Part shown: positions 2,729-32,000 of the stretch, in pieces
Position numbering within the stretch: the first letter of the stretch is position 1
Layout of the letters: every line of letters starts with the position of its first letter
Assembly (NCBI GenBank): GCA_963675515.1
Contig: OY776328.1
Span: forward strand, 1,920,001-1,952,000
Source: Coprobacillaceae bacterium
GTDB taxonomy: Bacteria > Bacillota_I > Bacilli_A > Erysipelotrichales > Coprobacillaceae
DNA: 32,000 bases
Direction: 5' to 3'
Notes under the pieces: model-generated
The model's database searches: none
Told to the model about the DNA's origin: nothing
The model's input: only the letters and a program-made list of their open reading frames with translations
Made by a program: the position numbers and the translations under genes

Positions 2729-2731
2729 CGT

Positions 2732-4552: not shown

Positions 4553-4562
4553 TATGACTCCT

Positions 4563-6568: not shown

Positions 6569-6569
6569 A

Positions 6570-7028: not shown

Positions 7029-7046
7029 TCAATTCACCTTACTTTT

Positions 7047-9038: not shown

Positions 9039-9094
9039 GTTTTCACCCCTTCAAGACTTATTCCTCTTATCGGGGATGTTTCCTTGAAAATGTA

Positions 9095-9123
9095 ATGAAA
9101 AAAGTGCGGAAAAATCCACACTT
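9095..9123 (-). terminator. Rho-independent terminator after the aminotransferase gene
   Basis: The minus strand reads AAGTGTGGA-TTTT-TCCGCACTT followed by TTTTTCATT, starting at the stop codon. Confidence 0.6.
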
Positions 9124-10304: not shown

Positions 10305-10305
10305 T

Positions 10306-12140: not shown

Positions 12141-12150
12141 TTTTTTCCTC

Positions 12151-12987
12151 CTAAAATTCAACCGTTCCTTCAAATACGGTTGTCGCATCACCCGTCATGA
12201 ATATATGACCGGTATTTTTGTCGTACTCGATTTTCAAGGTCCCTCCAAGAAGCTCGACATCGACAACTTCGTCAACGTAGCCGTTCAAATAAGCGGCGTA
12301 CATAACCGCGCAGGCTCCGGTGCCACAAGCGAGAGTTTCGTGTGAACCTCTTTCCCAGACCCGCATTTTCAATTTGGATCTGGAAACGACTTGGACAAAC
12401 TCGGCATTGACTGATTCCGGGAACATCGGATTGTTTTCAAATTCCGGTCCCACTTTTTCCAGATCAAAATCAAGACTGCCTACAAACGTTACGACATGGG
12501 GATTGCCCATCGAGATGGCGGTAAGGCCATAAACATTGTCACCGATTTTGACATGTTCGTCGATCATTTCCTCTTCCTGGCAGATCACCGGAATTTTCGA
12601 ACAGGTCAGGACCGGTTTTTGCATGTCGACTCTGGCCCCGATGACGATGCCATCATCCATGATCAGATCGACTTCCCTTATTCCCGCCCCGGTTTCGATA
12701 ACCAGATGGGTCTTGTCGGTAAGTTTATGATCGTAGCAGAATTTTGCGAAACAGCGGATGCCGTTGCCACACATCCTTCCCATTGATCCGTCAGCGTTGT
12801 ACATTTCCATCAAAAAATCACAGTCACTTGAAGGTCGAATAATGATCACACCATCGCTTCCGATACCAAAATGACGTTTTGATATCTTTTTGATGACGTT
12901 CTCGTTGATTGAAAAGTCCTGGTTGATCCCATCGATATAGATATAATCATTCCCAATCCCTTCCATCTTTGTGAATTTAATTTGCAT
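12151..12987 (-). CDS. dapF: Diaminopimelate epimerase
   Basis: 278 aa. The N-terminus is [15 protein letters not shown], and both catalytic cysteines are present ([16 protein letters not shown]). Confidence 0.92.
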
Positions 12988-13038
12988 ACAATCTTCCTCC
13001 AGTGACTAAATATTATCAAATTAAGTGAATGTTTTCAA

Positions 13039-15027: not shown

Positions 15028-15058
15028 AACAAAATCCTCCTTGATTTTCTATATCTCC

Positions 15059-15077
15059 ATTCTACCACATATTGTGG
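15059..15077 (-). promoter_or_regulatory. Candidate extended -10 promoter (TGGTAGAAT) for the EF-G-like gene, overlapping a small palindrome
   Basis: The minus strand reads ...CCACAATATGTGGTAGAATGG... about 30 nt upstream of the GGAGG RBS. CCACA-N3-TGTGG is an inverted repeat. Confidence 0.35.
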
Positions 15078-15130
15078 ACAATACATAGCAATAATGTAAG
15101 GGTATACACCACTGAAAATCATTTTTTTGG

Positions 15131-15165
15131 AAACAACAAAAAGAGCCAACCGCAAGGGCTGACTC
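15131..15165 (-). terminator. Rho-independent terminator after the ABC-F gene
   Basis: The minus strand reads GAGTCAGCC-CTTGC-GGTTGGCTC (9-bp stem with two G-U pairs) followed by TTTTTGTTGTTT. Confidence 0.6.
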
Positions 15166-15173
15166 AATCAAGC

Positions 15174-17129: not shown

Positions 17130-17205
17130 GGCCCGTTGGAGAAACGGTTAACTCACATGCCTTTCACGCATGCATTCACGGGTTCGAATCCCGTACGGGT
17201 CACCA
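17130..17205 (+). tRNA. tRNA-Glu (anticodon UUC), CCA encoded
   Basis: Acceptor stem GGCCCGT/ACGGGTC. Anticodon arm CATGC-CTTTCAC-GCATG. T arm CGGGTTCGAATCCCG. It is near-identical in its arms to Bacillus tRNA-Glu as I recall it. Confidence 0.93.
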
Positions 17206-17213
17206 ATTAAAAT

Positions 17214-17287
17214 AGGGGCGTAGTTCAATGGTAGAATACCGGTCTCCAAAACCGTTGATGCGGGTTCAACTCCTGCCGCCCCTGCCA
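17214..17287 (+). tRNA. tRNA-Trp (anticodon CCA), CCA encoded
   Basis: Acceptor stem AGGGGCG/CGCCCCT. Anticodon loop CTCCAAA. T arm GCGGGTTCAACTCCTGC. The 3' end is GCCA. Confidence 0.93.
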
Positions 17288-17412
17288 TTTGATAAATTAT
17301 CCGCTAATTAAGCGGTTTTTTTGTGCTTTCAAAAAGTCATCCAGCGGCAAATAAGCCAAACTTTTAGACATTCAAGTAAAAATGCAATAATTTCAGATGA
17401 TAAAGTCGAACC
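17283..17412 (+). repeat. Junction repeat copy T: the tRNA-Trp 3' end plus downstream flank (att-like core TGCCATTTGATAAAT at 17283-17297)
   Basis: The 15-nt core recurs perfectly at 22371, 24465 and 31520 in the same orientation. The next 75-150 nt are recognisably homologous in all copies. Confidence 0.85.
17301..17322 (+). terminator. Rho-independent terminator of the tRNA operon
   Basis: CCGCT-AATTA-AGCGG followed by TTTTTTT. Degenerate versions of this hairpin occur in the other three junction copies. Confidence 0.6.
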
Positions 17413-17462
17413 TTTTTAATGCGATGAAGGTTCGACTCTTAACTCTCCTTGAACACAAATAG

Positions 17463-18533
17463 TTATCTCTGCAATCTAGAAAATTTAACATCATTTATAT
17501 ACATTCCATACAACTCATTGCTATCAATCATTGTCAGCAAATCCTGTTTTTTAACGTAAACTCGCACACCAATCCCGGAGACACCATTCTCCATCGCATC
17601 CTCATACCGTGCAGATAAATCCTCATACATTTTTGCCGCACTATTACCACTGTAATCATATGAAAAATACGAATACATCAAATAGAGAAAATCTTTATGA
17701 TCCAGGAGCAGTTTCATTCTGGAAAGATAACTTTGCACTATGTCACTAGCTTTATATTCATTAAAATATAACCCAGGATATTTATTGCTGAATTCTTCGT
17801 TCAAGTCATAGCGAATTGTGTCAGAAAGAGAAATTCCAGTTGCAATATCCGTTCCCTGATCCACTCCTGTAGCCAACCAAACGAATCTAGAACCATTATA
17901 ATTATTTACAAAATCAATTACCTCTTCGACCGATATTGTATTTGCAAAGCTCAAAGAGACGTCTAAAATAGCTGATTCAGGCAATTCTTCAATATCGGCA
18001 AGGTTATAAGCAGTCTGCCATTGAACAAAATTTTCTATTGAATCATCATAATATTCCCCGTAAACCCTACTAAATATATGATCATAAGAACTGTCGATTT
18101 CCAAGGACGAACGATTAATAGTCAGAGTAGTGTTGGGAATTCCATCGACAGTTAAAAATGAAAAAGATGGCTGCATTTTTGCATTAATTGTATAGTTCCC
18201 AAATCCAAGATTGTTATAATCAATCCCATCATAAAAGACGCCCGGGAAATACATACTAAGAAATATCCCAGTCAGCATATTAAAGCCGTTTATCCCTTCA
18301 TCGGGAATTACCAATCCTGTTTCATCCTCAGGATTATAATTTACGAGGTTTAGACCATAAGAAGTCCCAAAAAAGCCTGCCGATAAAATTATGGAAATGA
18401 TCAACATAACTGCAATAACCCGGATATAAATGCGACGATTAATTCGTCGATTTATTTTTTTTTCAATCTCTTTAAACTCATTATCATCCAAATCTTCATG
18501 CTCGAACAATTCGTTGAACTCTTCATCATTCAT
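17463..18533 (-). CDS. Putative anti-sigma factor (single-pass membrane protein with a large extracytoplasmic domain)
   Basis: 356 aa with an acidic N-terminus, one TM helix (IRVIAVMLIISIILSAGFFG) and a C-terminal domain of about 290 aa. Its ATG overlaps the stop of the upstream ECF sigma gene by 8 nt (ATGAATGA). Confidence 0.6.
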   Translation of the reverse strand: MNDEEFNELFEHEDLDDNEFKEIEKKINRRINRRIYIRVIAVMLIISIILSAGFFGTSYGLNLVNYNPEDETGLVIPDEGINGFNMLTGIFLSMYFPGVFYDGIDYNNLGFGNYTINAKMQPSFSFLTVDGIPNTTLTINRSSLEIDSSYDHIFSRVYGEYYDDSIENFVQWQTAYNLADIEELPESAILDVSLSFANTISVEEVIDFVNNYNGSRFVWLATGVDQGTDIATGISLSDTIRYDLNEEFSNKYPGLYFNEYKASDIVQSYLSRMKLLLDHKDFLYLMYSYFSYDYSGNSAAKMYEDLSARYEDAMENGVSGIGVRVYVKKQDLLTMIDSNELYGMYINDVKFSRLQR

Positions 18534-18922
18534 GGTATTCCTCCTTCACACTTTCCATCAATTGCATTTTCACCCTGTGTTTTATCACTCTTACATTTTC
18601 TATACTGACATTAGCAATGTCAGATATTTCTTTATCGGATAACTCATTTTTAAGACTAAGCACCATAATTTCTCGATCACGGGGCTTCAATTCAAAAATT
18701 CTCTTGTATAACCACAACCTCTTCTCATCTTTGATAATATTTTCCAAGATTACATCTTTTTGTTCTAAAAGTTCAATAACAGTGACATCGATGTTAATCT
18801 CATTTTTCTTTTTCTTATACAGATTATAGCATTCATTTCTAATCACTTTATAGAGCCATGCCCTGATGTTTCCTCCATTGAAACTCAGGTATGCTCGTAC
18901 AAACGCGTTTGCTAGAACATCC
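18526..18922 (-). pseudogene. ECF sigma-70 family factor, 3' portion (regions 2.x-4), separated from its 5' end by IS66
   Basis: ...DVLANAFVRAYLSFNGGNIRAWLYKVIRNECYN... and the region 4 HTH LSDKEISDIANVSIENVRVIKHR. The frame continues exactly from 21697-21799 once the IS and one TSD copy are removed. Confidence 0.85.
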
Positions 18923-18999
18923 GTACGCGCCAAATAGAGCGGTGGTAGGATTCCTGTCGTTTTGTTGATACAATGATCACATCAATTTGGAGGTGTGAT

Positions 19000-19332
19000 A
19001 TGAGTCAGTATTCTCAAGAACAGTGGCATCAGTTTTTCGAAGATGCCGCCAATAGTGATTTACCAATCAAGAAATGGTGCTTAGCCAATGACGTTTCTTT
19101 TAATGCCTTTTGCTACCACAAATATTCGAAGCCTTATCGTAAAAAATCCAGGATAAGCGAATGTGCCAGCGAAGTCAACAGCCCGCTGGTGAAGCTCAGC
19201 TTAGTCGATTGCGTTCCAACCATTCGTAATGACGGGTTTGAAATCTCCATTGGTAAAGCCTGCATCAAAGTTGATGATTCAACGGATTTGGTGACTTTGG
19301 CCAAGCTTATCAGGTTGCTCAATGAAGATTAA
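19000..19332 (+). CDS. tnpA: IS66 accessory protein TnpA (orf1)
   Basis: The ATG follows a GGAGGTG RBS. It is small and HTH-like (IKKWCLANDVSFNAFCYHKY), and it is the first gene of the IS66 triplet. Confidence 0.75.
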   Translation: MSQYSQEQWHQFFEDAANSDLPIKKWCLANDVSFNAFCYHKYSKPYRKKSRISECASEVNSPLVKLSLVDCVPTIRNDGFEISIGKACIKVDDSTDLVTLAKLIRLLNED

Positions 19333-19681
19333 ATTTGAGGACTTCGACAATATCTATCTGGTACCCGGAGCAACGGATTTAAGAAAAAGTTATGCGGGAT
19401 TGAGCGCCATGGTGAGCCACAATCTTTACCTGGATCCAACCGCCAATAATCTCTACATATTTTGTAGCCGCAACAAGCGAACTATCAAGATGTTGGAGTT
19501 TGATAAAAACGGTTTTGTCATCCACTCCAAGAAGCTGTTGAACACTGATCGATTCTATTGGCCCAAGGCCCAAGATGATATCAGCTCGATGACCGTTGAC
19601 TTGCGGCAGCTAAACTGGCTACTTGATGGTCTGGAGATTGAACAAAAGCGGGCGTTCAAGGATATTTCAGTAATAATTTAG
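19322..19681 (+). CDS. tnpB: IS66 accessory protein TnpB (orf2)
   Basis: 119 aa with the YLVPGATDLRKSYAGLSAMV and NLYIFCSRNKRTIKML motifs typical of IS66 Orf2. It overlaps tnpA by 11 nt. Confidence 0.85.
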   Translation: MKIKFEDFDNIYLVPGATDLRKSYAGLSAMVSHNLYLDPTANNLYIFCSRNKRTIKMLEFDKNGFVIHSKKLLNTDRFYWPKAQDDISSMTVDLRQLNWLLDGLEIEQKRAFKDISVII

Positions 19682-19826
19682 CGAAAGATATAGGAGTAAT
19701 TCACAATAATTTGTGGGTTTCTTTTATATCTTTTTAAGTTATTCACATCTTTAATAAATTGCCGTAAAATCAAGACTTACAGCCATTTTTATGGTATACT
19801 CTCAAAGAGAAACGAGGTGGATTTCG

Positions 19827-21632
19827 ATGATAAAGCTGATGGAAAATATGTCTAAAGAAGAGCTGATTGCTGCTTTCAAAAATAGAGAAAAAGAGCTTTG
19901 TGAGAAAATCGAATCCGACCGTATTTCAAAAGTTAAACTTATCAAAGAAAATGAGTTGTTGGCTGCCAAAGAAAAGAAATTCACTGCTAAAGAAAAGACT
20001 TTGATCGCCGAAAATAAGAAGCTGATTAGTGAAATCAACGAACGCAAATTGGAACTGCAACAGAAAAACGAATATATCAAGATATTAGAAAACGCCCGAT
20101 ATTCCTCTCAGAGAAATAATATAAAAGAATACAATCAAGGTCCCGACCTTTTCAGTCTGATTGGTATCGATTTTGGTGTGGTAACTGAGACTGAAGAAAT
20201 AGAAGTCAAGGAAATCAAAGGGTACAAAAGAAAAGTAAGAATCCCTAAAGAAAAGCACATTAACTACGATCACCTAAAAACCAATGTCATTGACGAGCCG
20301 ACACCAGAAAATTTCGATGTCTGCGACCTTTGTGGTACAACCATGAAAATAAAAAAGTACGATGAAAGAAAGGAACTCGTCTATACCCCAGCCAAAGTGG
20401 AAATGAATATATACCGTACTCCAGTATACGAATGTGTTGCTTGCCAGGAACATAACCTGGACGGCAAGTCATCTTATAAAAGAGTTCCGGGCAGACAACC
20501 TGTCATCAAGGGGAGCATTGCTTCACCTTCGCTGATTGCGAATATAATGGATATGAAATATTTGAAGGGTTTGCCCCTGGCCGCTCAGGAAAAACGATTC
20601 CTGGAGAATGATGTTGTCATCCCTAGACAAAATATGGCCAATTGGATGATTAAAGCCTCGGTACATCTGGGTTTACTGTTCGAATGCATGCGCAAGGATC
20701 TGTTGGCCATGAATGTGATACACTGCGACGAAACCACGACCCAAATTTTAAATGAAGAGGGCAAGACGGCTCAAAGTAAATCCTACATGTGGGTGGTAAG
20801 AACCTGCCAATATGATGTGCCGATCATCTTATATCGTTATGATCCCACTCGCTCAAAACGTGTTGTCGAAGATTTCATCGGAGATTATTCGAACTACCTG
20901 GTAACCGATGCATATGGGGCCTACGAGGCCCTTGATAATGTCACCAACTGTTTTTGCCACGTCCACGCCTTCCGTTATTTCCGTAAAGCCCTTGAGGTAT
21001 TGCCAAAAGGTAGTGATAAAAGCAAAAGTTACGAATATACGTGCTATCGTTATTACCAGAAAATATTCGAAGCAAAAAACAAGATTGAAACGACCGCTAA
21101 GTCAAAACACTGCAAAAATCCAGTTAAATATTTTGAGTATGTTCATAAGGGCCGAAATGATATCGTAAAGCCTATTTATGACAATTTTTTAGCGTACCTT
21201 AAAGAAATAATCTTGCTACCTGAAGTGAATATGAAACCTACGTTGATCAAGGCAATTAATTACGAATTGAACCATGAGAAGGAATTCCGTGAAGTATTCA
21301 ATAATCCAAAAGTTCCGTTCGACAATTCAAGCGCCGAGAGAGTTATCAGACCATTTGTGGTATCTAGAAATCGCTGCAAGTTCTATACCAGCCCCAAAGG
21401 AGCCCAAGCTGCGGCAATCATCTACTCGTTACTACTAAGTGCTGAAGAGAACGGGTTGTCAGCATACATGTACATGGAGTACGTATTGGAAAGATTACCA
21501 AGCATCGATCCAAGTGATGAGGTCGAAATCAGAAAGCTATTACCATACAACAAGGACCTGCCCAAATATTTGCGCCAACTGACGGCCAAAGAAATCAAAG
21601 AACTCAAATTAGGAATCCAAAGACAGAAATAA
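19827..21632 (+). CDS. tnpC: IS66-family transposase TnpC
   Basis: It has an N-terminal coiled coil, zinc-finger cysteines (CDLCG...CVACQ) and a DDE core (HCDETT, YLVTDAYGAY, NSSAERVIR). The preferred start MIKLMEN follows a GAGGTGG RBS. Confidence 0.9.
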   Translation: MIKLMENMSKEELIAAFKNREKELCEKIESDRISKVKLIKENELLAAKEKKFTAKEKTLIAENKKLISEINERKLELQQKNEYIKILENARYSSQRNNIKEYNQGPDLFSLIGIDFGVVTETEEIEVKEIKGYKRKVRIPKEKHINYDHLKTNVIDEPTPENFDVCDLCGTTMKIKKYDERKELVYTPAKVEMNIYRTPVYECVACQEHNLDGKSSYKRVPGRQPVIKGSIASPSLIANIMDMKYLKGLPLAAQEKRFLENDVVIPRQNMANWMIKASVHLGLLFECMRKDLLAMNVIHCDETTTQILNEEGKTAQSKSYMWVVRTCQYDVPIILYRYDPTRSKRVVEDFIGDYSNYLVTDAYGAYEALDNVTNCFCHVHAFRYFRKALEVLPKGSDKSKSYEYTCYRYYQKIFEAKNKIETTAKSKHCKNPVKYFEYVHKGRNDIVKPIYDNFLAYLKEIILLPEVNMKPTLIKAINYELNHEKEFREVFNNPKVPFDNSSAERVIRPFVVSRNRCKFYTSPKGAQAAAIIYSLLLSAEENGLSAYMYMEYVLERLPSIDPSDEVEIRKLLPYNKDLPKYLRQLTAKEIKELKLGIQRQK

Positions 21633-21696
21633 ATTGTCCGCGGATTCCTTTTTCCTTGCATCAGAATATTCTTCCACCGCTCTATTTGACGCTTAC

Positions 21697-21799
21697 GAAC
21701 ATCCTTCGCATCTTCCTTGTCATTAGTGAGGGACAGTGCGTACAGAAATAACTGCTGATAGTATTTTCTATATACTATTTCGAAATCATCATTTCTCAT
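21697..21799 (-). pseudogene. ECF sigma factor, 5' portion (first 34 codons) cut off by the IS66 insertion
   Basis: MRNDDFEIVYRKYYQQLFLYALSLTNDKEDAKDV follows a GGTGGAGG RBS. The tracked 145-aa ORF continues artefactually into the IS66 right end. Confidence 0.85.
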
Positions 21800-22034
21800 A
21801 CCTCCACCTCTCTCATATATATAACAATTTAAAAGTAAATTAATTACAAAATTCCACATATTTATTACAAAAACATTGACCGATATATTTTTTATTTACA
21901 AATTTTAATTAATTATATCATAATTCACACTAGTATACGTGATTTGCTAAAATATCGGGAATCTTACTAATGAGTTAATCCTCTGCATTTTTTGCAAATT
22001 AATGACAACATAATCTAATATTGCCACTAATTTA

Positions 22035-22520
22035 AAAAAACTGGCTATCGGACGATAGACGAGCTCTCCACTACTTGTTAGAGCAATTGTATCTCAGCTA
22101 ATACGTTGACTTGCCGCGAAAACTCGGTCACCGTTCCGACTCAGTCGCAACGTGTGTATCTTAGAAATTCCAGCCTTACTATCTTACCACGACAGTTTTG
22201 AATGTAAGTTTTATCTCCGTTATTTCAATGTCGAGAACCCTTTTAGCTACTCCAAATGCAATCCTGATAACCTATCCACTTGTCAAAGATTAAGTAGATA
22301 AAAAACACAATTCTCCAACGATAATTGCGTTAATTATCGGTAAAAAAGTTCGAGGCACATATGCTAATGGTGCCATTTGATAAATCATCATCTTGTTAAG
22401 CGGTTTTTTGTGCATTTATACAGGACCCGGCGGTAAATGAGTCGAACTATATTCACTCTAAAAACATTAAATGTCTGAAATGTAATTCATAAACATGTTT
22501 GGAGTTCGAAAATTCAATGT
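22035..22520 (+). repeat. Junction repeat copy A: a non-coding module of about 336 bp, then the core (22371-22385), then the homologous flank
   Basis: It aligns along its length with 24133-24640. It shares the core and flank with the tRNA-Trp copy. Boundaries are approximate. Confidence 0.85.
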
Positions 22521-22568
22521 AAAAGTTTCGCCATCAACAAGCCGTAATTGCAAAACATTGAATCTTAT

Positions 22569-23981
22569 TTATAAGATGGCTGGAATATAAATTACCAAAT
22601 TCCAGCCACTAACATTTGTCTCAAATGCATAGACCGGCTGATAGTACGCTTTACTGTCTACCAAATATTCAAGTGAAACTTCGCCGATGTCGAGACTCAA
22701 TTCATTCGAATTTGAATTGATAGAAAACCTTCCATCCTCAATCATCTCAAATGCTTCTTCTTGAGATATGATGTCGCAGTCCTTATAATATTCACATAGA
22801 ATTATGTCACTGGTGATTGATCCCATTTTACCGTTTTCATAGTATGTGCATGAAATCGTGCCATCACAGATGGTTTCGCCTTTGGAGATGCCATTTGCTG
22901 TTAGGGTATAGTTACCTTCCCCGTTATTGGTGAAATCCATACCAACTGGGAGTTCAATGCCGTATTTTCCAAGTGCCAACACAATATCTTCTTCAGTCGC
23001 ATTCAAGACCGTTTCGCTTGGTGAATCCATAGAATCAGCATTGAAATCTGAAATATGATACGTACCACCAAGATAATCCATCCAATATGAATATCCGTCA
23101 AAACTGTTATAAACCGCAGTCTCATCATATATCTGCGTGCGACTCTCATTTATTGTATCTCCAAGCGATTCAAAGAATTTTTCCGCGTATTGATATGTTT
23201 CTACCTGAGTGAATCTTTTTGTCTTATAGACTTTGCATCTTGCACGCTTGTCGCTATAGTCATACTCAGAACTTACACTCAATATATCAGGATTCACTTT
23301 TGAAATGTACTCAACGGACAGATTACCAAGATCCTGGCGAGAATAAGCAGTAAAGATAGATGTAAAAGTTACAATTAAAATAATAAAAGGAAGTTGCAAT
23401 GCTGCAGTCTTTTTAAAACCATGCTTTTTCCCTTTGAAGCTTGAAATTATCGTAGATAAAAGTGCAAAACACCCATAGCCAATCATCACTCCCATTGTAT
23501 TATCAAAAATATCATCAAATTCAAATAACCCAATTCTTAAAACATACTGTATGATTTCAATTACTAAACTCATTAAGAAACCAACAAGATATGTTATCCA
23601 AAATTTCCTGAACCTTTGAATTCCAACTGGAAGCAAGAATCCAAGAGGCACAAATAAAACAATATTCAGGATAATGTTCCGCCAATCTCTAGGTCTGAAA
23701 TTCACCCAAGCTTCTCTATACGAATAAAAAAGCGAATGTATTTGAGAGTTCTCATAGAATGGCACCCGATTTAACATCGTCGCGCCAAAAATTACAGCTA
23801 AATAACAAACAAATACGATAAACCAGATCATCATCGATTTCGAGACAGTTTTTCTTCCCTTAAAAATCCTTTTGTAAAAGACAAAATACACAAACGAAAC
23901 TAACGTGGTTAAAAATGCTGCCAAAATTATTCCAAATATCAAATAGCGCTCACCTAATGAGATCATGTCAGATATCCTCAT
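22569..23981 (-). CDS. VanZ-family membrane protein with a C-terminal extracytoplasmic extension of about 250 aa
   Basis: VanZ hallmarks are present: NIVLFVPLGFLLP, EIIQ, FDDIFDNTMG. The start MRISDMISLG follows a GGGGGAGG RBS. There are multiple TM helices, then a soluble tail. Confidence 0.8.
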   Translation of the reverse strand: MRISDMISLGERYLIFGIILAAFLTTLVSFVYFVFYKRIFKGRKTVSKSMMIWFIVFVCYLAVIFGATMLNRVPFYENSQIHSLFYSYREAWVNFRPRDWRNIILNIVLFVPLGFLLPVGIQRFRKFWITYLVGFLMSLVIEIIQYVLRIGLFEFDDIFDNTMGVMIGYGCFALLSTIISSFKGKKHGFKKTAALQLPFIILIVTFTSIFTAYSRQDLGNLSVEYISKVNPDILSVSSEYDYSDKRARCKVYKTKRFTQVETYQYAEKFFESLGDTINESRTQIYDETAVYNSFDGYSYWMDYLGGTYHISDFNADSMDSPSETVLNATEEDIVLALGKYGIELPVGMDFTNNGEGNYTLTANGISKGETICDGTISCTYYENGKMGSITSDIILCEYYKDCDIISQEEAFEMIEDGRFSINSNSNELSLDIGEVSLEYLVDSKAYYQPVYAFETNVSGWNLVIYIPAIL

Positions 23982-24132
23982 TAAACCTCCCCCTTTCTGG
24001 TTGAATGATTTTTTTATACACAACAAGCATAACTACTATAACATATGTAACCATCTTCAGGAATACAATCGCAGTCATTTTTATGTTTTTTGTATATGAG
24101 TGACAATACAAATTTACATTTTCATTCATGTA

Positions 24133-24640
24133 CAAAAACTGGTTATTGAACAAGAGAAGCACTCTCTACTACTTTTTTAGCAATTGCATCTTTGCTAATA
24201 AGTTGACTTGCCTGCGACAGTACGATCACTGCTTTGACTCAGTCGCAACGTGTGTATCTTAGAAGTTTCAGCCCTACTATCTTGCCACGATAATTTTAAA
24301 TGTTAGTTTTATCGCCGTTATTTCAATGTTGCAAACCCATTTAGCTACTCCAACTGTTATCCAATAACCTAACCATTTGTCAAAGATCAAGCAAAAAAAC
24401 ACAATCATCCAACAAAAATTGCATTAATTATTGGCAAAAAAGTTCGACGCACATGTGCTAATGGTGCCATTTGATAAATTATCTGCTTAATAAGCTGTTT
24501 CTTTGTGTTTTCAAACAGGGATCCATTGATCACTAGTCGAAGTATACCTATTTTCAAAAACACAAATTAAATTATATGTATTTCAAATTTTCGATACTGC
24601 CTCTAAATTTACAACGTTGCAATTAATCTATTTTCGCAAA
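24133..24640 (+). repeat. Junction repeat copy B: a non-coding module of about 332 bp, then the core (24465-24479), then the flank
   Basis: It is homologous to copy A. From 24431 onward it is near-identical to 31486 onward (offset 7055). Confidence 0.88.
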
Positions 24641-24645
24641 GAAAG

Positions 24646-25203
24646 CTATTTATTCACATTCAGCCATACCTCTTTAGTAAGTTCGTAACCAAGACAGTGG
24701 ACTATGTCCCCATCATTGGAATCAATTTTACGTTTCTCAATTTCATCTTTTACATAGATAAATCCAAGCTTGCCCAGGATATTTGCGGAAGCTATATTCT
24801 CTTTTTCGAAGCAGGCACAAATTTTGTCAATCGAGGTGTAATCAAATAAATAGTTGAATATTGATTTACATGTTTCTTGTATGTAACCTTGATGCTGAAA
24901 ATTTTTTCCTAAAATATATCCAATTGTAGCATTATTATCACATATGACTGCTTTGAAATTACCAATTACATTTTCTGGCTTTTCCTTCTTTGTAATTGCG
25001 ACATTATGTATATTTGGATCACTGATATATGGAATTATTTGAGTTACTAGTTTATTTCTAGTGCATTCCACGTTTGAGTGTGGATACCATGCCATATATG
25101 TTGAAAGTTGCTCATCGCAATAGAAGTTATTATACATACTATAAGCATCATCAATGATATAGTTTCTCAAAATTAATCTATCTGTCATAATATTTATACG
25201 CAT
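24646..25203 (-). CDS. GNAT-family N-acetyltransferase (RimJ/RimL-like), copy 1
   Basis: TDRLILRNY...D start typical of Acetyltransf_3, plus a QHQGYIQE acetyl-CoA loop. The ATG at 25203 lies 9 nt after GGAGG. Confidence 0.82.
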   Translation of the reverse strand: MRINIMTDRLILRNYIIDDAYSMYNNFYCDEQLSTYMAWYPHSNVECTRNKLVTQIIPYISDPNIHNVAITKKEKPENVIGNFKAVICDNNATIGYILGKNFQHQGYIQETCKSIFNYLFDYTSIDKICACFEKENIASANILGKLGFIYVKDEIEKRKIDSNDGDIVHCLGYELTKEVWLNVNK

Positions 25204-25930
25204 AATACTCAACCTCCCTTATTTTGATTTCAAGCACTTACTTCGCTAAAAGTGAGTGCTTTTTCATTTTATTTTTTATAATAAATCGTAACACACATGA
25301 ATATAATAATGAACTTAATTAACCATCAAATACATGTGAGTTCGATATTTGATTATCTTCACTTATGAAAAACTACTAAACATCGGCTTTTTGGCTGAAA
25401 GTAATTCTTCTTCGGTACCAACAATAAACTCCAAGATGTATCTGGTGGCTAATTAAGATAATGAACAACAATTATATAATCTTTAGAATTTTTTAGATTT
25501 TATTCATGAGATTATCAGTTAAAACTTGTGACTTAATATATCCTGCATGATAGGACAGTTGCCCATGAATCACACAAATATTTGTCCGAGCATTCAGATA
25601 TCGCAAAGAAGAAGCTGATAATCACGGATTTCCATCTCATCGCGTAGTTTCAAGGATACGTCTTGAATAAATTCATACTTGCCCTGACCGCTGGTTCCAC
25701 TCGACATTTTTTCCTTAGCTGTTATCTCTCCCGGTCCAATTAATTATGGATCCGATTTCCGACAAGTTGATAATCGAATCGATAGCAGCTACCAAAACAC
25801 TTTTTATAACCGGATCACTCACTCCTGGCGGTGCTACTGGTTGTGATTCAACTGCACTTGGCTCTTGCTCTTGTATTTCGCTATCTTAGGTGGGGAGCAA
25901 CTATTTATATTAAATTGACACTCCCAGGTT

Positions 25931-25990
25931 AAAAAAAAGATTCCGACTAATAGTGGAGAACCATTTAGGTCTCTTCGCTATTGGTCGGAA
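25931..25990 (-). terminator. Rho-independent terminator after the permease gene
   Basis: A long hairpin TTCCGACCAATAGCGAAGAGA...TCTCCACTATTAGTCGGAA (minus strand) is followed by TCTTTTTTTT. Confidence 0.65.
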
Positions 25991-26016
25991 GCAAGTTGTT
26001 GGAATTGAATTGAAAT

Positions 26017-27942
26017 TTATTTTTTGACAATTTGATAATAAGTGCGTGCGGTGAGGAGGTAGACCAGACAGTAGATTGCTGCCAGGAAAGCCACTGTGAT
26101 GATGGTGATTATAAAGTAAGTTTGGACATTGCCAAGCAGGGCCATCCTAAGCACTCTCAAGATCAGCGGAAAGGCAAAAGCCAGGTGGATGATGGCAACT
26201 ATCAATGGCAAAAAGAAGAATACCAGTACCTGGCTTTTGATTGCCTGTTTGACTTCTTTTTGGCTCATTCCGACATTCTGAAGGATCTCGAATTTGTTTT
26301 GGTCCTCGTACCCTTCGGAAAGCTGCTTGTTGTATATGATCATTATTGCCGCCATCAGGAACATCACCGACATGAAAATCCCGATGAAAAGCAGACTACC
26401 AAGCACTTCATAACTATCCTGCAGTTGAGCATCATGATTCAAGAAAGTGACAGAACGAGGACCTTCTTGATTGAAGAATTCATTTTTGATGGTATCGACA
26501 GTAGCTTCCAGCTTGGGATCATCACTGTTTAGTCCGATGGCATAGCCGGGAATCAGCTCAGTTAGAGCCGGAATTGTTGCAATCTGGCCATTTGCGAAGA
26601 TGACCGCCATTCGTCGAGGTGCGTAATAATTGCCAACCATGATCCGCGGATCCACAAAGGTGCCAACCACCTGATAATCAACCCCATCAATCCAGATGTC
26701 GTCCTCTTGATAGTCGAAACTGGTGTAAAGAACAACCTGGTTGGACTGTAATTCGATACTTTGATTGAAACCTTGATTGAAAGTATCCTGGCTTAAAGCG
26801 TTGAGATTGATGGTATCGTTGAAACTGTCACTACTAGTCGCTTCCAAGACTACATGACCATCATGATAGATTCCAATTGTATCAAGCAAATCAAAGGAGA
26901 AGTAATCATAATAGTCAAGATCTTGCAGATGCGCAGTCGCAATTTCCTCAAAGTTGTTTTCGACCTCGCGGGCATAACCCACCATGATCTGGTCAGCCGG
27001 ACATTGGCCGTCAACTGATTCCTGGATGCCAATATACATGCAAAAAGTCGAGGAAAAAGTCACCAGGACACAGGTACAAAGAATACAGATATTGGCCAGA
27101 CCGATGGCGTTTTGTTTCATCCGGTATAAAAGTCCCGAAATTGCTGTAAAATGACGGGTCTGATAATAATACCGTTTGTTTTTGCGCAAGAGTTTGAGCA
27201 AAGTAATGCTCCCAGCGGTGAAAAGACAATAGGTTCCAATCATCACCAGAATCACGGCCACAAGAAACAAAGCGATTGCCAGAACAGGATCAGTGATGGT
27301 CAGGGCGATATAATAACCGGCACCAAGAGCAACCAGTCCGATCATGGTCGTGATCAGTTTGGTCTTGGGCTCTTTTTCCCCAATATTGCCCCCTTTTAAC
27401 AGTTCAATCGGTTTGGTCAACTGGACACTCAGCACATTGACAGCCATCGAAACCAAAAAGATGGTCAGGTATAAAAGGGCTGTTTCAAGAATCCCTTTAA
27501 ACGAGACACTCAAGGCGAACTCGATTGGAGCATGAATCAGATTGGTGATCAAAAGATCCATCAGCTGACCAAGCAAGATCCCCATAATCACGCCAGCGAT
27601 GATTGAAACAGCAGCCACAATCATAGTTTCCAGCAGCATCATCACCATGACATGACGTTTTTCCATACCTAAGATATTGTAGAGGCTGATTTCCTTTTTC
27701 CGGTTTTTGATGACAAAGCTATTGCCATAAAGCAGGAAAACCGTGGCGAAGATCATGATCACATAAGTCCCCATCGACATGAAAGTGCTAAGGGTCGGCC
27801 TATTAGCCAGCGATTCGCTGTAGTAAAGCGATCTGACAATATAGAACAGACAGCTGGTGAAGATGGCCGAAAAGATGTAAGGATAGTAGAACTTGCGGTT
27901 CTGGTTGATATTGGTTCGGGCCAGTTTATGATAGAATCCCAT
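26017..27942 (-). CDS. BceB-type FtsX-domain ABC permease
   Basis: About 641 aa with 10 predicted TM segments and a large extracellular domain between the late helices. The start MGFYHKLARTNI follows a GGAGG RBS, 1 nt after the ATPase stop. Confidence 0.85.
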   Translation of the reverse strand: MGFYHKLARTNINQNRKFYYPYIFSAIFTSCLFYIVRSLYYSESLANRPTLSTFMSMGTYVIMIFATVFLLYGNSFVIKNRKKEISLYNILGMEKRHVMVMMLLETMIVAAVSIIAGVIMGILLGQLMDLLITNLIHAPIEFALSVSFKGILETALLYLTIFLVSMAVNVLSVQLTKPIELLKGGNIGEKEPKTKLITTMIGLVALGAGYYIALTITDPVLAIALFLVAVILVMIGTYCLFTAGSITLLKLLRKNKRYYYQTRHFTAISGLLYRMKQNAIGLANICILCTCVLVTFSSTFCMYIGIQESVDGQCPADQIMVGYAREVENNFEEIATAHLQDLDYYDYFSFDLLDTIGIYHDGHVVLEATSSDSFNDTINLNALSQDTFNQGFNQSIELQSNQVVLYTSFDYQEDDIWIDGVDYQVVGTFVDPRIMVGNYYAPRRMAVIFANGQIATIPALTELIPGYAIGLNSDDPKLEATVDTIKNEFFNQEGPRSVTFLNHDAQLQDSYEVLGSLLFIGIFMSVMFLMAAIMIIYNKQLSEGYEDQNKFEILQNVGMSQKEVKQAIKSQVLVFFFLPLIVAIIHLAFAFPLILRVLRMALLGNVQTYFIITIITVAFLAAIYCLVYLLTARTYYQIVKK

Positions 27943-27943
27943 T

Positions 27944-28702
27944 TTAACGGCCTCCAGTGGCAATCATCTTGAGGGTATCCGAGATTTTTTGGTACATCTG
28001 ATTGTTTGAAAGATCACTTTTGTAAAGCTGATGATAGATTTCCCCGTCCTTGATAAACAGGACCCGGCTGGCATAGCTGGCTGCCTTAGTTGAGTGGGTA
28101 ACCATCAAAATCGTCTGCTTGGATTTATGGATTTCATCAAAGATTTCCAAGAGATTATCGGTTGATCTGGAATCCAGGGCTCCGGTCGGCTCATCAGCCA
28201 GAACGATCTTGGGATTGGTGATCAAAGCCCGGGCTACAGCCACCCGCTGTTTTTGACCGCCGGAAATCTCATAAGGATATTTTTCCAGCAAGTCTTCAAT
28301 CCCCAGTTTGGGTGCCAAAGCGGATAACTTTTCCTTCATTGAAGGATATTTTTCCTTGGACAGGACTAATGGCAGATAAATATTGTCTTCCACTGACAAA
28401 GTATCCAGGAGATTGAAATCCTGGAAGACAAAGCCCAGGTTCTTTCTTCGAAACGATGATATTTCCTTGTCCTTGATTTTGGTGATATCTTCTCCTTCAA
28501 GTAAGACTTCCCCGCTGGTTGGCTTGTCAAGTGAAGCCAGGATATTAAGCAAGGTGGTTTTCCCACTGCCGGATTCGCCCATGATGGCGACATATTCACC
28601 GGCTTCAATTTCAAAGTTGACGTTTTTCAAAGCCTCTACTTTCTGTTTTGAAAAACGGGTTGTATATATCTTCTTTAATTGGTTTACTTTTAATAATGTC
28701 AT
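27944..28702 (-). CDS. BceA-type ABC ATP-binding protein
   Basis: 252 aa with GESGSGKTTLLN, LSGGQKQRVAVARAL, LADEPTGALD and the H-loop VTHS. Confidence 0.9.
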   Translation of the reverse strand: MTLLKVNQLKKIYTTRFSKQKVEALKNVNFEIEAGEYVAIMGESGSGKTTLLNILASLDKPTSGEVLLEGEDITKIKDKEISSFRRKNLGFVFQDFNLLDTLSVEDNIYLPLVLSKEKYPSMKEKLSALAPKLGIEDLLEKYPYEISGGQKQRVAVARALITNPKIVLADEPTGALDSRSTDNLLEIFDEIHKSKQTILMVTHSTKAASYASRVLFIKDGEIYHQLYKSDLSNNQMYQKISDTLKMIATGGR

Positions 28703-28783
28703 AAGTATTACCTTCCCTTCTTTATCAGTTTACTAAAAAAAGGAAATGTCCATCCATCGATGTTCCTTACATTTCCCGTTTCC

Positions 28784-28805
28784 AATCTTACAATTTTGTA
28801 AGATT
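28784..28805. promoter_or_regulatory. Near-perfect 22-bp palindrome, candidate BceR-type response-regulator operator upstream of the transporter genes
   Basis: AATCTTACAATTTTGTAAGATT (TTACAA/TTGTAA half-sites) overlaps the kinase stop codon, about 85 nt upstream of the ATPase ATG. Confidence 0.5.
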
Positions 28806-29778
28806 ACTCGATAAAGATGCTTTTTTTATAGAAATCGATGCATACGGTAGTTCCAACACCGACTACGGAATCAATCGTAATGCCATGATTTAACTTGTCT
28901 AGAATCAATTTGACTAGGTATAATCCGATCCCACTGGCTTTTTTGTCCTGGCGACCCTGAAAACCGGTGAAGCCCCGTTCAAAGACCCGGGGCAAATCTT
29001 CAGCTTGGATTCCAGTCCCGGTATCCTGGATATAGAGTCGGGAATTATCATTATAAATTGAAATCGTTCCCTGCTTAGTATACTTGATGGCATTGGAAAG
29101 AACCTGTTCTATCACAAAGGAACTCCATTTTTCATCAGTCAAGACCTTGGTATCATCAAGATTGTACTCCAGATTGACCTTGCCATGGGCAAAGAAAGTG
29201 ACTTGTTTTTTTAGAACCTCACTGACCAACTTATCCAGTGACACATATTCAAACAAAAAGTCGTTATTGATATCTTCAAGCCGAAGATACTGCAGCACCA
29301 TATTGACATATTGTTCAATCTTCAAAAGTTCCAGCACCATTTCCTGATTATTGCACTGTGACTGCAATAAAAGTTTCAAGGCTGAAATCGGAGTTTTGAT
29401 CTGATGAACCCAGATCGTATAGTAGTCAATCAAGCCCTGATATTTGTTTTGATTGACTTGTTTGGTATCTCTAATCAGATTATTGAGCTGATCAATCAAC
29501 TCCTGATATTCTCTTTCGATAACATCTTTGGGCTTAAGGAATGTATCCAAAGAAACATCGATTGAATTCTTTAAATTGAGGACATTGTGGTACCGGTTTT
29601 TGAAAGCCAAGAAATCAAAAATGCCAAAACCAATTACCAAGGCCAACCAAACCAAAGTCAAATACTCAATCACTGAAGTCTCGAGTTGAACCAGAGAGAA
29701 AACCAACACTTCAAAGATGATGAAGATGGTAAAGACAAGGTATATGAATTTGCGATAGTTAAGATATTTCAACATCAA
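28804..29778 (-). CDS. BceS-type intramembrane-sensing histidine kinase
   Basis: 324 aa with two N-terminal TM helices joined by a minimal loop, the H-box HQIKTPISAL, the N-box SNAIKYT, and the G-boxes DTGTGI and GIGLYLV. Confidence 0.85.
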   Translation of the reverse strand: MMLKYLNYRKFIYLVFTIFIIFEVLVFSLVQLETSVIEYLTLVWLALVIGFGIFDFLAFKNRYHNVLNLKNSIDVSLDTFLKPKDVIEREYQELIDQLNNLIRDTKQVNQNKYQGLIDYYTIWVHQIKTPISALKLLLQSQCNNQEMVLELLKIEQYVNMVLQYLRLEDINNDFLFEYVSLDKLVSEVLKKQVTFFAHGKVNLEYNLDDTKVLTDEKWSSFVIEQVLSNAIKYTKQGTISIYNDNSRLYIQDTGTGIQAEDLPRVFERGFTGFQGRQDKKASGIGLYLVKLILDKLNHGITIDSVVGVGTTVCIDFYKKSIFIE

Positions 29779-30443
29779 ATCAGATACCCCATTCCCTTTT
29801 TGGTCTTGATAAAATCATCCAGCCCGATTGTTTCCAGCTTCTTGCGTAGACGATTGACATTGACGCTTAACGTATTGTCATCGACAAATTGGTGGTCATC
29901 CCAAAGAAAGTTCATGATCTCCTCCCGAGACAAAATCGTTTCGGGCTTTTGAAACAGCAACTCCAATATCTTGACTTCATTCTTGGTTAACTCCAAAGCT
30001 GCATCATTGAAGGAAATAGTGGCATTAGCAACGTCCAAGATGACATCATTGTAGGTAAGCAGATGAAAATCCTTGGCAAAACTGTATGTTCTGCGTAGAA
30101 TTGCCTGGATTTTGGCCGTGATGACATTCAAATCAAAGGGTTTGTTTATAAAATCATCACCGCCCATGTTCATTGCCATCACAATATTCATGTTTTCATT
30201 AGCTGAGGAAATGAAGACAATTGGAATCTGCGAGATATTTCTGATTTCCCGGCACCAGTGGTAGCCGTCAAATGAAGGCAAATATATGTCCAGCAAAACC
30301 AGATCCGGAGCAAAAGCTGAGAAGTCAACTAGGACATTATTAAAATCAGTTATACAATTAACCTGATAACCCCATTTTTCCAGATGATTTTTAAGCGTTG
30401 AAGCAATGACACTGTCATCCTCAACTATCATGATTTTATACAT
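29775..30443 (-). CDS. OmpR-family response regulator (BceR-like)
   Basis: The start MYKIMIVEDD follows an AAGGAGAG RBS. It has a receiver Asp (LLDIYLP) and a winged-helix C-terminus (TLSVNVNRLRKKLE...TKKGMGY). Confidence 0.88.
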   Translation of the reverse strand: MYKIMIVEDDSVIASTLKNHLEKWGYQVNCITDFNNVLVDFSAFAPDLVLLDIYLPSFDGYHWCREIRNISQIPIVFISSANENMNIVMAMNMGGDDFINKPFDLNVITAKIQAILRRTYSFAKDFHLLTYNDVILDVANATISFNDAALELTKNEVKILELLFQKPETILSREEIMNFLWDDHQFVDDNTLSVNVNRLRKKLETIGLDDFIKTKKGMGYLI

Positions 30444-30664
30444 CCCTAACTCTCCTTTGCTTACGTGGAATGGCAACATTATTCCCGACACTTTTATAAA
30501 AAGCGTTTAGAAGTGGTAAAATTTAGCAGAAATAAAGCTAGATTAATCTATTCGAACATTAGTTATAAATTGCTTTAAATGATGAATCCGAATAGTTACC
30601 TCCGGGTCGAATGTAATAAATTCCGATATTGTTCTCATACTCTTATACTATAGAAAAGTACCCA

Positions 30665-31377
30665 TCACAATACGATATTTGCACTCATCAGCTCTGCCTG
30701 CTTTATGACTGTATTAATAGCATTTTTTGCTTGGTCTGGCGGATATTTGTATTTTCTTAGCAAGTGCTTTACCTGAGTTCTCACATAGGCTCTTGCAGAC
30801 TGTTTTTTATCCCAGTCAAGCGTTCTGCTTTTTTGAATCAATGTAGTTAATTCGTGCGCCATTTCGACTAAAATAGCATCCACCATATTTTGTAGGACTT
30901 TTGGGTCTGCAACAAGCGCATCATAAAATGCCAATTCTTCAGGTGACAAACCTTTTTCGTTACCATCAACATAGGCCTCAGTCATTTCTTTTGAAAGAGT
31001 CAAAAGCTCTTCAATAACTTCTGCACTTGTTATCATTCGATTGTTATAGCGTTTCAAAACATTTTGCGTTTTTTCAGAAATAAGTTAGGCATTAACCGCA
31101 CCGGTTCTTGCAAATATTCGGATATTATATTCTTACATGATACGCAATAGTTCTGCTGCAATATTTTTATTTTTCATTTTCCGTACTTGTGCCATATACT
31201 CATCCGAAAGTAGTGAAATCTCCGGATTTTTTTGCCTGAATGTTCAAATACGTTTACCACACCATCCTGTTGAATCGCTTGTTCAAGCATCTTCATAATG
31301 CGAGCATTAATTTCATTGGAAGTGATTTTTCCTTTTCCACAACTTTGCATATTCCAGCCATAACGGATATTATACAA
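30665..31377 (-). pseudogene. hsdR: Remnant of the type I restriction enzyme R subunit (hsdR C-terminal region), 5'-truncated, frameshifted and with in-frame stops
   Basis: Reading the minus strand gives ...VVNVFEHSGKK (frameshift in an A run) NPEISLLSDEYMAQVRKMKNKNIAAELLRIM*EYNIRIFARTGAVNA*LISEKTQNVLKRYNNRMITSAEVIEELL...KYKYPPDQ, the conserved HsdR C-terminal (DUF3387-type) sequence. Confidence 0.75.
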
Positions 31378-31414
31378 GATTCTAACATGTCCTTATCTTC
31401 TTGTCTAATTTAGT

Positions 31415-31700
31415 ATAACTTATCCACTTGTCAATAATCAAGCAGATAAAATAGCACAATTCTCCAACGAAAATTGCATTAACTATTGGCAAAAAAGTTC
31501 GACGCACATGTGCTAATGGTGCCATTTGATAAATTATCTGCTTAATAAGCGGTTTCTTTGTGTTTTCAAACAGGGATCCATTGATCACTAGTCGAAGTAT
31601 ACCTATTTTCAAAAACACAAATTAAATTATATGTATTTCAAATTTTCGATACTATCTCTAAATTTACAGCGTTGCAATTAATCTATTTTCTCAAAGAAAG
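31415..31700 (+). repeat. Junction repeat copy C: only the last 105 bp or so of the module, then the core (31520-31534), then the flank
   Basis: The left part resembles copy A (TATCCACTTGTCAA, CACAATTCTCCAACGA). From 31486 onward it is near-identical to copy B. Confidence 0.88.
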
Positions 31701-32000
31701 CTATTTATTCACATTCAGCCATACCTCTTTAGTAAGTTCGTAACCAAGACAGTGGACTATGTCCCCATCATCGGAATCAATTTTGCGTTTCTCAATTTCA
31801 TCTTTTACATAGATAAATCCAAGCTTGTCCAGGACATTTGCGGAAGCTATATTCTCTTTTTCGAAGCAGGCACAAATTTTGTCAATCGAGGTCTTATCAA
31901 ATAAATAGTTGAATATTGATTTACATGTTTCTTGTATGTAACCTTGATGCTGAAAATTTTTTCCTAAAATATAACCAATTGTAGCATTATTATCACATAT
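31701..32000 (-). CDS. GNAT-family N-acetyltransferase, copy 2 (3' part only; the gene runs off the window)
   Basis: It is near-identical to 24646-24945 with the stop codon at the equivalent position. It is missing from the ORF track because no start codon lies inside the window. Confidence 0.8.
   Translation of the reverse strand: MCDNNATIGYILGKNFQHQGYIQETCKSIFNYLFDKTSIDKICACFEKENIASANVLDKLGFIYVKDEIEKRKIDSDDGDIVHCLGYELTKEVWLNVNK

Follow-up and report, generated by a model that had tools for sequence, protein, structure and literature searches.

The tRNA-Trp locus and its repeats

The DNA analysed here, referred to as the window, is a stretch of 32,000 nucleotides (nt) of contig OY776328.1 (assembly GCA_963675515.1, forward strand, positions 1,920,001 to 1,952,000) from a Coprobacillaceae bacterium, and positions within it are counted from its first letter. 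Its plus strand carries two neighbouring tRNA genes, tRNA-Glu (17130-17205) and tRNA-Trp (17214-17287), both called by ARAGORN and matched by the Rfam tRNA family with 62-66 bits. Downstream of tRNA-Trp lies an array of repeats and cargo genes organised around a 15-nt sequence, TGCCATTTGATAAAT, which we call the core. It is present in four perfect plus-strand copies starting at 17283, 22371, 24465 and 31520; by the ARAGORN coordinates, the first of these opens with the final 5 nt of tRNA-Trp, the 3' end of which is the presumed attB. These copies delimit three units of 5.1 kb, 2.1 kb and 7.1 kb that carry, respectively, an anti-sigma and extracytoplasmic function (ECF) sigma pair, a VanZ-family gene, and a GNAT acetyltransferase gene with Bce-like genes and an hsdR remnant. 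A first-pass annotation, made by a model from the letters of the window, had already reported the core in four perfect copies of one orientation, and we recover it at the same four positions. Shuffled sequences yielded 0.26 matches at up to two mismatches, and five matches were reached in 0 of 100 shuffles.

To the right of the core, every copy is followed by an arm derived from the tRNA trailer, here named R. At copy 1 (core 17283-17297, R arm to 17362, plus strand) the order is tRNA-core-R without a left arm, and R is the native trailer itself, with a terminator hairpin, CCGCTAATTAAGCGG, and a T-run. This trailer is kept at 89-93% identity over 45 nt in two relatives, L009 and L015 (loci of relatives are labelled L007-L009 and L015-L019; L007 is chromosome OY780959.1, or ctg13481l, and L002 is the L-core-R locus of that chromosome). 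The right flank of copy 1 aligns with those of copies 3 and 4 at 85-87% over 61 nt and with that of copy 2 at 77.5% over 80 nt, beyond which the alignment continues for copies 3 and 4 only. As such, the homology to the tRNA downstream flank claimed in the first-pass annotation holds, at a length of 61-80 nt instead of 75-150 nt. The terminator hairpin is intact in copy 1, weakened in copies 3 and 4, and lost in copy 2. The stop codons of the adjoining minus-strand genes do lie at the similar distances noted before (176-198 nt from the cores), because the R arm is homologous.

Copies 2, 3 and 4 also have a left arm in common, L, which the first-pass annotation overlooked; what it called a common long module next to the attachment site is in fact the native tRNA trailer R plus this left arm. 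All on the plus strand, copy 2 comprises L at 21984-22370, core at 22371-22385 and R at 22386-22448 (hairpin decayed); copy 3 comprises L at 24082-24464, core at 24465-24479 and R at 24480-24545; and copy 4 comprises a truncated L at 31415-31519, core at 31520-31534 and R at 31535-31600. Some 385 nt of L are common to copies 2 and 3 (80% identity), compared with 105 nt in copy 4, and L resembles neither the tRNA nor the DNA upstream of the tRNA. The internal sites thus read L-core-R over about 460 nt, with an R of 60-80 nt. Since their left side is a conserved arm unrelated to the tRNA and their right side is tRNA trailer, the internal sites are attP-like, and by sequence would resemble either an attP or a fusion of attR and attL. 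Element arms on both sides of the core are kept at copies 2-4 and in OY780959.

L ends distally in an AT-rich inverted repeat with a stem of about 17-20 bp and a spacer of 12-16 nt (21990-22040 and 24087-24138 in the window, ~965-1015 in L002), in which compensatory changes between copies preserve the pairing. Furthermore, several blocks of L are invariant in the three long copies, GACTCAGTCGCAACGTGTGTATCTTAGAA being an example, a conserved TTGACA box lies ~95 nt from the core, and promoter-like hexamers (TTGCAA-N17-19-TAATAT) were seen by eye, outside the hits of the promoter scan, at the distal L of all three long copies. When folded, L was barely more stable than its shuffled versions, with a z-score of -1.89 on the plus strand, with 5 of 100 shuffles as stable, and 0.02 on the minus strand. 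The two tRNAs are the sole Rfam matches in the window, and the L-core-R module in L002 is unmatched at E <= 1. Two candidate identities of the repeat were rejected: L as a decayed gene, such as the 3' end of an integrase gene (stops in six frames, indels that are not multiples of three, no protein-like frame, and an apparent C-terminal peptide, ...IALIIGKKVRR..., and a minus-strand small open reading frame, ORF, across the core that are both lost in the diverged copy); and the end of L as a degenerate tRNA, for which ARAGORN and Rfam gave no match and no T-arm could be drawn.

Comparison with related genomes

The ABC-F gene beside the tRNAs has homologues of about 82% amino acid (aa) identity in Thomasclavelia, Massilimicrobiota and Tannockella, and its 90% cluster consists of metagenome-assembled genomes of Coprobacillaceae and Erysipelotrichaceae. 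The relatives differ from one another downstream of tRNA-Trp, and homology breaks at the core or just past it; only left-hand breakpoints are visible. While L009 and L015 keep tRNA, core and terminator and diverge from the window about 45-60 nt past the core, L016 and L017 are collinear with the window through an anti-sigma/sigma pair that stands uninterrupted beside tRNA-Trp (sigma 163 aa). L007 and L008 diverge directly after TGCCAT from the window as well as from L009, L015 and L016/L017, and their downstream cargo is made up of defence genes, namely GmrSD, a helicase, AAA_15, a KAP NTPase and a full-length hsdR.

An exact scan for the core with its flank in one genome per species (185,579 genomes) returned a single real match, OY780959.1, which carries two to three copies within 6 kb of one another in one region downstream of tRNA-Trp. 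Further matches in the genome scan (L003-L006) and one in a metagenome (L020, inside a coding region) were attributed to chance. Neither the viral contigs nor the JGI metagenomes held any of the left-arm/core patterns, and BLASTN of the module against plasmids and phages gave no match. The first-pass annotation had named core and flank at many loci unrelated to tRNA-Trp as the finding that would speak against its proposal; in the species genomes and the plasmid, phage, viral and JGI metagenome collections, a scan outside which the source genome beyond the window falls, we find no such pattern of a dispersed intergenic repeat or miniature inverted-repeat transposable element (MITE), and the one real match is itself clustered.

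In OY780959, a complete chromosome, tRNA-Trp lies on the minus strand at 624,849-624,922 and is followed by unrelated DNA immediately after TGCCAT. A long L-core-R copy is found at 552.6-553.0 kb, and over 40 nt its trailer matches that of the L009 tRNA at 100% identity. A second copy, at 558.3 kb, is diverged and decayed, with an IS3 insertion sequence (IS) that separates the distal L fragment. Both copies are in tRNA orientation, 66-72 kb downstream, with no tRNA nearby and with many IS elements and other mobile-element genes in their flanks, and the DNA between the tRNA and the displaced trailer contains copies of IS3, IS21 and IS66, AbiEii, a Toprim/DUF3991 protein and defence genes. The native trailer has thus been parted from its tRNA by some 72 kb, with L on the inner side of the trailer, which is the layout predicted by insertion at the tRNA 3' end. 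Two other observations were set aside: a blastn match in L015 (E = 1e-5) that might be a diverged copy was missed by an nhmmer profile and is not counted, and the GNAT gene past the far OY780959 copy, considered as a shared chromosomal flank, is not an orthologue of the GNAT gene in the window.

The units recur outside the window. The R-VanZ-L unit is found on metagenomic contig L018, collinear with window positions 22382-24220, at 82% identity (VanZ 81% aa); the two ends of this contig fall within the core and within L, where an assembler would be expected to break because of the repeats. Moreover, a 161-aa gene directly after tRNA-core-R in L009 has a 45% aa homologue in the 183-aa gene directly after the internal core-R of OY780959. 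Homologous units can thus follow the tRNA directly in one genome and an internal joint in another, and their position in the array differs from genome to genome.

As for age, the window and L016 share 86-92% identity in housekeeping genes, 76% in intergenic DNA, 76% in the anti-sigma gene and 79% in the sigma gene. Against OY780959, the identity is only 71-81% in housekeeping genes and 84-87% in the non-coding L-core-R (87% for copy 3 against the OY780959 copy). Inside the window, identity between copies 2 and 3 reaches only 80%, and the L-core-R copies do not group by genome. This likeness between species points to either exchange between lineages or strong constraint, and argues against a simple within-genome homogenisation. 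Between copies 3 and 4, identity is about 97.5% over a tract of at least 480 nt, which starts ~50-65 nt to the left of the core, takes in R and 300 nt or more of the GNAT gene, and is cut off by the end of the window. Copy 4 has a mosaic structure: to the left of about -50 it is like the OY780959 copy (L002a) and copy 2, from which it differs at 4 of 53 gap-free positions, compared with 12 for copy 3, and from about -50 rightwards it is a near-perfect match to copy 3.

We searched for the enzyme that might have built the array. Tyrosine or serine recombinase domains are absent from the tested window ORFs of at least 60 aa, and Pfam detected no integrase, excisionase or transfer genes among the principal non-overlapping ORFs of at least 130 aa between 17.3 and 32 kb and two short ORFs by copy 4; the sole recombinase-like gene in 17.3-32 kb is the transposase gene of an IS66 element. 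This domain search bears out the statement in the first-pass annotation that the segments encode no recombinase in this window. A small integrative mobilisable element on JGI metagenome contigs (L021-L023) carries a more distant homologue of the VanZ protein (57% aa) as cargo. This element is present on 18 contigs and encodes a tyrosine integrase, a helix-turn-helix regulator, an 80-aa ORF, AAA_25, a Mob_Pre relaxase and a long VanZ-family protein.

Origin of the array

We lean, with somewhat better than even confidence, towards a decayed, old accretion array of the type described for cis-mobilisable elements (CIMEs), that grew as elements integrated site-specifically at the asymmetric 3' end of tRNA-Trp. 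These integrative elements, all of one family, would have entered at the extreme 3' end of the gene through a crossover within TGCCATTTGATAAAT, the attP of each element consisting of the left arm L, the core and a tRNA trailer copy R. Each integration would leave tRNA-core-R next to the tRNA and L-core-R at the opposite end of the element, and repeated integrations would produce head-to-tail cargo units separated by L-core-R joints. The units would then have lost their integration and transfer genes, if they had any, to become CIME-like, and subsequent erosion may account for the deletion of L and hsdR at copy 4, the insertions of IS66 and a MITE-like sequence, and the decay of terminator hairpins, while ordinary homologous recombination between repeats, as in the duplication of copies 3 and 4, would have reshuffled them. 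The structure of the repeats, the lack of a recombinase in the window, the breakpoints between genomes and the displaced trailer of a relative are seen directly, whereas we infer that a tyrosine or serine recombinase, encoded elsewhere now or formerly, made the joints. Since no integrase was found, mobilisation in trans is a guess on our part. The serial integration proposed in the first-pass annotation agrees with the layout, in which tRNA-core-R is followed by L-core-R joints in one orientation with integrase-less cargo; it does less well with the missing integrase and with a newest breakpoint that lies outside the core.

Several further observations weigh against such an origin. The overlap between core and tRNA is 5 nt only, dyad symmetry is missing from the core apart from the terminator hairpin (its best dyad is no better than that of shuffled sequence), and L contains no conserved repeated 8-9-mers that would suggest arm-type binding sites. 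Neither the window nor some 60 kb of island DNA from relatives (L007, L008, L009, L015, L016 and L019) contains an integrase or excisionase gene; of the OY780959 DNA between the tRNA and the L-core-R copies, all except about 48 kb was read. Among the relatives compared, no occupied site could be matched with an empty one so that both of its boundaries can be seen. Judging from its divergence, the sigma/anti-sigma cassette has probably been in place since the lineages of the window and L016 split, and would be old, because it is syntenic in L016 at about 80% nucleotide identity and its divergence (76-79% identity) is about that of neutral intergenic DNA (76%). Finally, because the breakpoint in copy 4 lies about 50 nt left of the core, the sequence comparison indicates that the newest event was homologous recombination or gene conversion between repeats, not a crossover at the core.

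How does the array relate to systems that are better known? CIMEs keep attL and attR and have lost their integration and transfer genes, and their formation and accretion are treated in PMC5704250. As that paper sets out for the ICESt1/ICESt3 family of Streptococcus thermophilus (Pavlovic et al. 2004, Bellanger et al. 2011, via PMC5704250), CIMEs there stand head-to-tail through site-specific integration into an att site at the 3' end of a target gene, and internal sites fuse the right arm of one element with the left arm of the next, as they appear to do here. In contrast, the target in that account is fda instead of the 3' end of tRNA-Trp, and our units are small (~2-7 kb), with no partner integrative and conjugative element or integrase seen, in an uncultured member of the Coprobacillaceae. 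The likeness to CIMEs drawn in the first-pass annotation holds for the architecture, which matches accretion arrays; the units are not clean, and an integrase was not found.

At the ssrA gene of Dehalococcoides, tandem islands lie within 100 kb downstream of this small RNA gene and carry a 20-bp direct repeat of its 3' end; 16 have a serine-recombinase module by attL, and 15 are without an integration module and were proposed to be cis-mobilisable (PMC3146451). These islands share with the present array short repeats of the target 3' end and extra conserved nucleotides alongside that do not match the gene. Unlike in Dehalococcoides, where the target is the T-loop region of the tmRNA, it is here the very end of a tRNA plus its trailer, no integration module is seen, and the conserved arm is much longer (up to 385 nt).

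The asymmetric 3' end is a recognised sublocation for integration into tRNA genes (bioRxiv 10.1101/2020.11.02.365908). For the tyrosine integrase of phage mv4, which uses the 3' end of a tRNA-Ser gene in Lactobacillus delbrueckii, a 21-bp attB with a strictly identical 7-bp overlap and degenerate half-sites suffices (bioRxiv 10.1101/2023.11.06.565760), and the missing dyad of the core is therefore not decisive. Both sites are located at a tRNA 3' end in Bacillota, and the minimal needs of mv4 are compatible with a 15-nt core lacking obvious symmetry. However, mv4 is an entire phage, equipped with int and xis genes and a defined attP, compared with only putative sites and no known recombinase here. 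The mv4 attP spans about 234 bp.

The L021-L023 element resembles the window units in that its VanZ gene is at one end and reads outward, with the tyrosine integrase at the opposite end, where L lies in the window; this is the layout expected of the window units before decay, by analogy. However, it belongs to a different family, has no tRNA on its contigs, and shares only VanZ coding sequence with the array. Because it has no DNA likeness to L, R or core, it is evidence of layout alone and shows only that VanZ-type genes travel on elements of this kind.

The alternative that survives best, an unlikely one in our view, holds that L-core-R is a conserved intergenic control module, a bidirectional terminator with a promoter or leader for the minus-strand operon downstream, which was spread together with adjacent genes by segmental duplication and homologous recombination without any site-specific recombinase, the likeness to the trailer going back to one ancient illegitimate joint. 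A terminator is indeed present in R, the conserved TTGACA box in L lies at ~95 nt from the core, and L is located upstream, on the minus strand, of the sigma gene, the VanZ gene and the membrane-protein gene of L002. Furthermore, the cargo has a coherent theme of envelope stress and antimicrobial-peptide resistance, and both the origin of the newest duplication by homologous recombination and the failure to find an integrase would be in keeping with it. However, sigma-70-like promoters, seen by eye outside the scan hits, are located between L and the start codon of the sigma and L002 membrane-protein genes, so L is dispensable as a promoter, and on the minus strand the module folds no better than shuffled sequence (z = 0.02). 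This explanation also leaves two observations unaccounted for: that 72 kb of mobile DNA stand between the OY780959 tRNA and its native trailer, to which L is joined, and that L is closer between species than within a genome.

It is improbable that L-core-R is instead a plus-strand non-coding RNA gene of about 400 nt, running from a promoter in distal L to the trailer terminator, which was duplicated by envelope-stress genes as an antisense or regulatory RNA. The distal promoter-like hexamers of the three long copies, again identified by eye outside the scan hits, could serve as its start and the terminator that is intact in L002a as its end, and the compensatory changes in the distal inverted repeat, perfectly conserved blocks such as GACTCAGTCGCAACGTGTGTATCTTAGAA, and the plus-strand fold (z = -1.89) are all what a structured RNA might show. 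The z-score is weak, however, with 5 of 100 shuffles as stable, and the covariation comes from three long copies only. No Rfam family matches at E <= 1, the terminator is decayed in copies 2 and 3, copy 4 is without the presumed promoter, and the link to the tRNA 3' end would go unexplained.

A bolder proposal, and one to which we give little credence, is that L-core-R is the working site of an undescribed Coprobacillaceae cassette-exchange system at tRNA-Trp, the recombinase of which would be encoded outside the cassettes, by the host or at the array end, and which would gather single-operon envelope-defence cassettes in a single orientation, similar to an integron; L, conserved above housekeeping level, could then be a recombination enhancer or a functional RNA. 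Even more doubtful is that the modules were moved by a host recombinase (as in Xer-dependent integrative mobile elements exploiting Xer, IMEX, or pdif modules) or by an integron-like cassette system, since small one-gene or one-operon units of uniform orientation, each with a conserved site and none with a recombinase, would be in keeping with it, yet the core lacks an 11-6-11 dif-like dyad (a 28-bp site of two 11-bp inverted arms and a 6-bp centre), the site is at a tRNA end and not the replication terminus, the repeat is ~460 nt long, and no IntI-like gene, attI or hairpin attC (57-141 nt) was found.

If integration at the tRNA-Trp 3' end is indeed what built the array, tRNA-Trp would be a landing pad of long standing in a family of gut bacteria that has been little studied, gathering small units (ECF sigma, VanZ, Bce-type transporters and restriction genes) that serve in envelope stress, antimicrobial-peptide resistance and phage defence. 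The array would illustrate how such units persist and are reshuffled by homologous recombination long after integrase loss. This bears on the inheritance and exchange of resistance and defence genes in gut Bacillota, as well as on how island-finding software handles integrase-less units bounded by tRNA-end repeats. It leaves the current understanding of the mechanism unchanged, being a local case of the known build-up of islands at tRNA genes.

Cassettes and neighbouring features

Cassette 1 (17463-21859, minus strand) consists of a Sigma_reg_C anti-sigma gene (17463-18533) and an ECF sigma gene, both on the minus strand and assigned by Pfam. The latter is split into a 3' part (18526-18921) and a 5' part (~21698-21799) by the IS66 element at 18922-21697, which sits inside it with 30-nt inverted repeats at its ends and an 8-bp target duplication, GAACATCC. 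Pfam identifies the plus-strand ORFs of this element as orf1, TnpB_IS66 and a DDE transposase. Cassette 2 contains the VanZ-family gene (22569-23981, minus strand, Pfam VanZ), called with 470 aa in public data, where protein P0121 is 100% identical to it.

In the third segment, all genes are on the minus strand and were assigned by Pfam: a first GNAT acetyltransferase gene (24646-25212, Acetyltransf_3), a BceB-like permease gene (26017-27963), a BceA-like ATPase gene (27944-28702), a histidine kinase gene (28804-29778), a response regulator gene (29775-30491), and a 3'-end remnant of hsdR (30665-31377, T1RH-like_C) that is 5'-truncated and frameshifted. Past copy 4 follows a second, minus-strand GNAT copy, which runs from 31701 to 32000 and past the window edge and is about 97.5% identical to 24646-24945. 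L008 has a full 1009-aa hsdR (2219-5248) about 4 kb from tRNA-Trp, and the hsdR fragment of the window matches its 3' end at 92.5% identity. A single joint at copy 4 accounts for the absence of both the 5' 2.3 kb of hsdR and most of L, and the point where the hsdR remnant abuts the truncated L is a deletion joint.

Between the first GNAT gene and the Bce-like genes lies a non-coding plus-strand stretch, R' (25228-25495), that is homologous to the tRNA-proximal flank of L007 and L008. With this homology inside it, segment 3 is therefore composite, a GNAT unit joined to the remnant of a different island type. The homology covers 25228-25314 and 25454-25495 in the window against 9128-9243 in L008 and the equivalent in L007; R' is upstream of the GNAT gene and has a strong terminator hairpin. 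Its counterpart in L007 and L008 lies 240-355 nt downstream of tRNA-Trp, and these two loci are alike for about 360 nt past the tRNA before they diverge. This suggests, on sequence grounds, that R' may belong to a second family of tRNA-proximal arms at the tRNA-Trp hotspot. R' is interrupted by a MITE-like insertion of about 143 bp (25315-25457) with 21-bp terminal inverted repeats, TTAATTARCCAYCARATACAT, and a flanking 9-bp direct repeat, ATAATGAAC; it is missing from the homologous stretch of L008 and has no second copy in the window.

The cargo listed in the first-pass annotation (sigma/anti-sigma, VanZ, GNAT, BceB/A/S/R-like genes and an hsdR remnant) agrees with the Pfam assignments. Its statement that all genes point the same way does not hold, as IS66 has three plus-strand ORFs, and its division into three segments is right in that their cargo differs, but these are not clean units, segment 1 being old and segment 3 a mosaic. 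The AT-richness that it ascribed to all segments applies in general, with a GC content of 0.30-0.39 in the cassettes against 0.44-0.53 in core genes (~2000-15000), except that the Bce genes reach 0.41-0.45.

Some features of the neighbouring DNA were noted in passing. In L007 and L008, 11706-16377 holds a gene for a MarR regulator and genes for two ABC2-type membrane proteins between ABC-F and a paralogue of elongation factor G, genes that are missing from the window (15028-15173), L009, L015 and L016. In L002, 4210-4277 gives sub-threshold Rfam matches to the IS-associated small RNAs Ref64 and sau-5949, beside a 483-aa transposase-like gene. At the AT-rich left edge of the window, a DDE_Tnp_1 (IS4-like) transposase of 525 aa is encoded at 100-1677, unrelated to the array.

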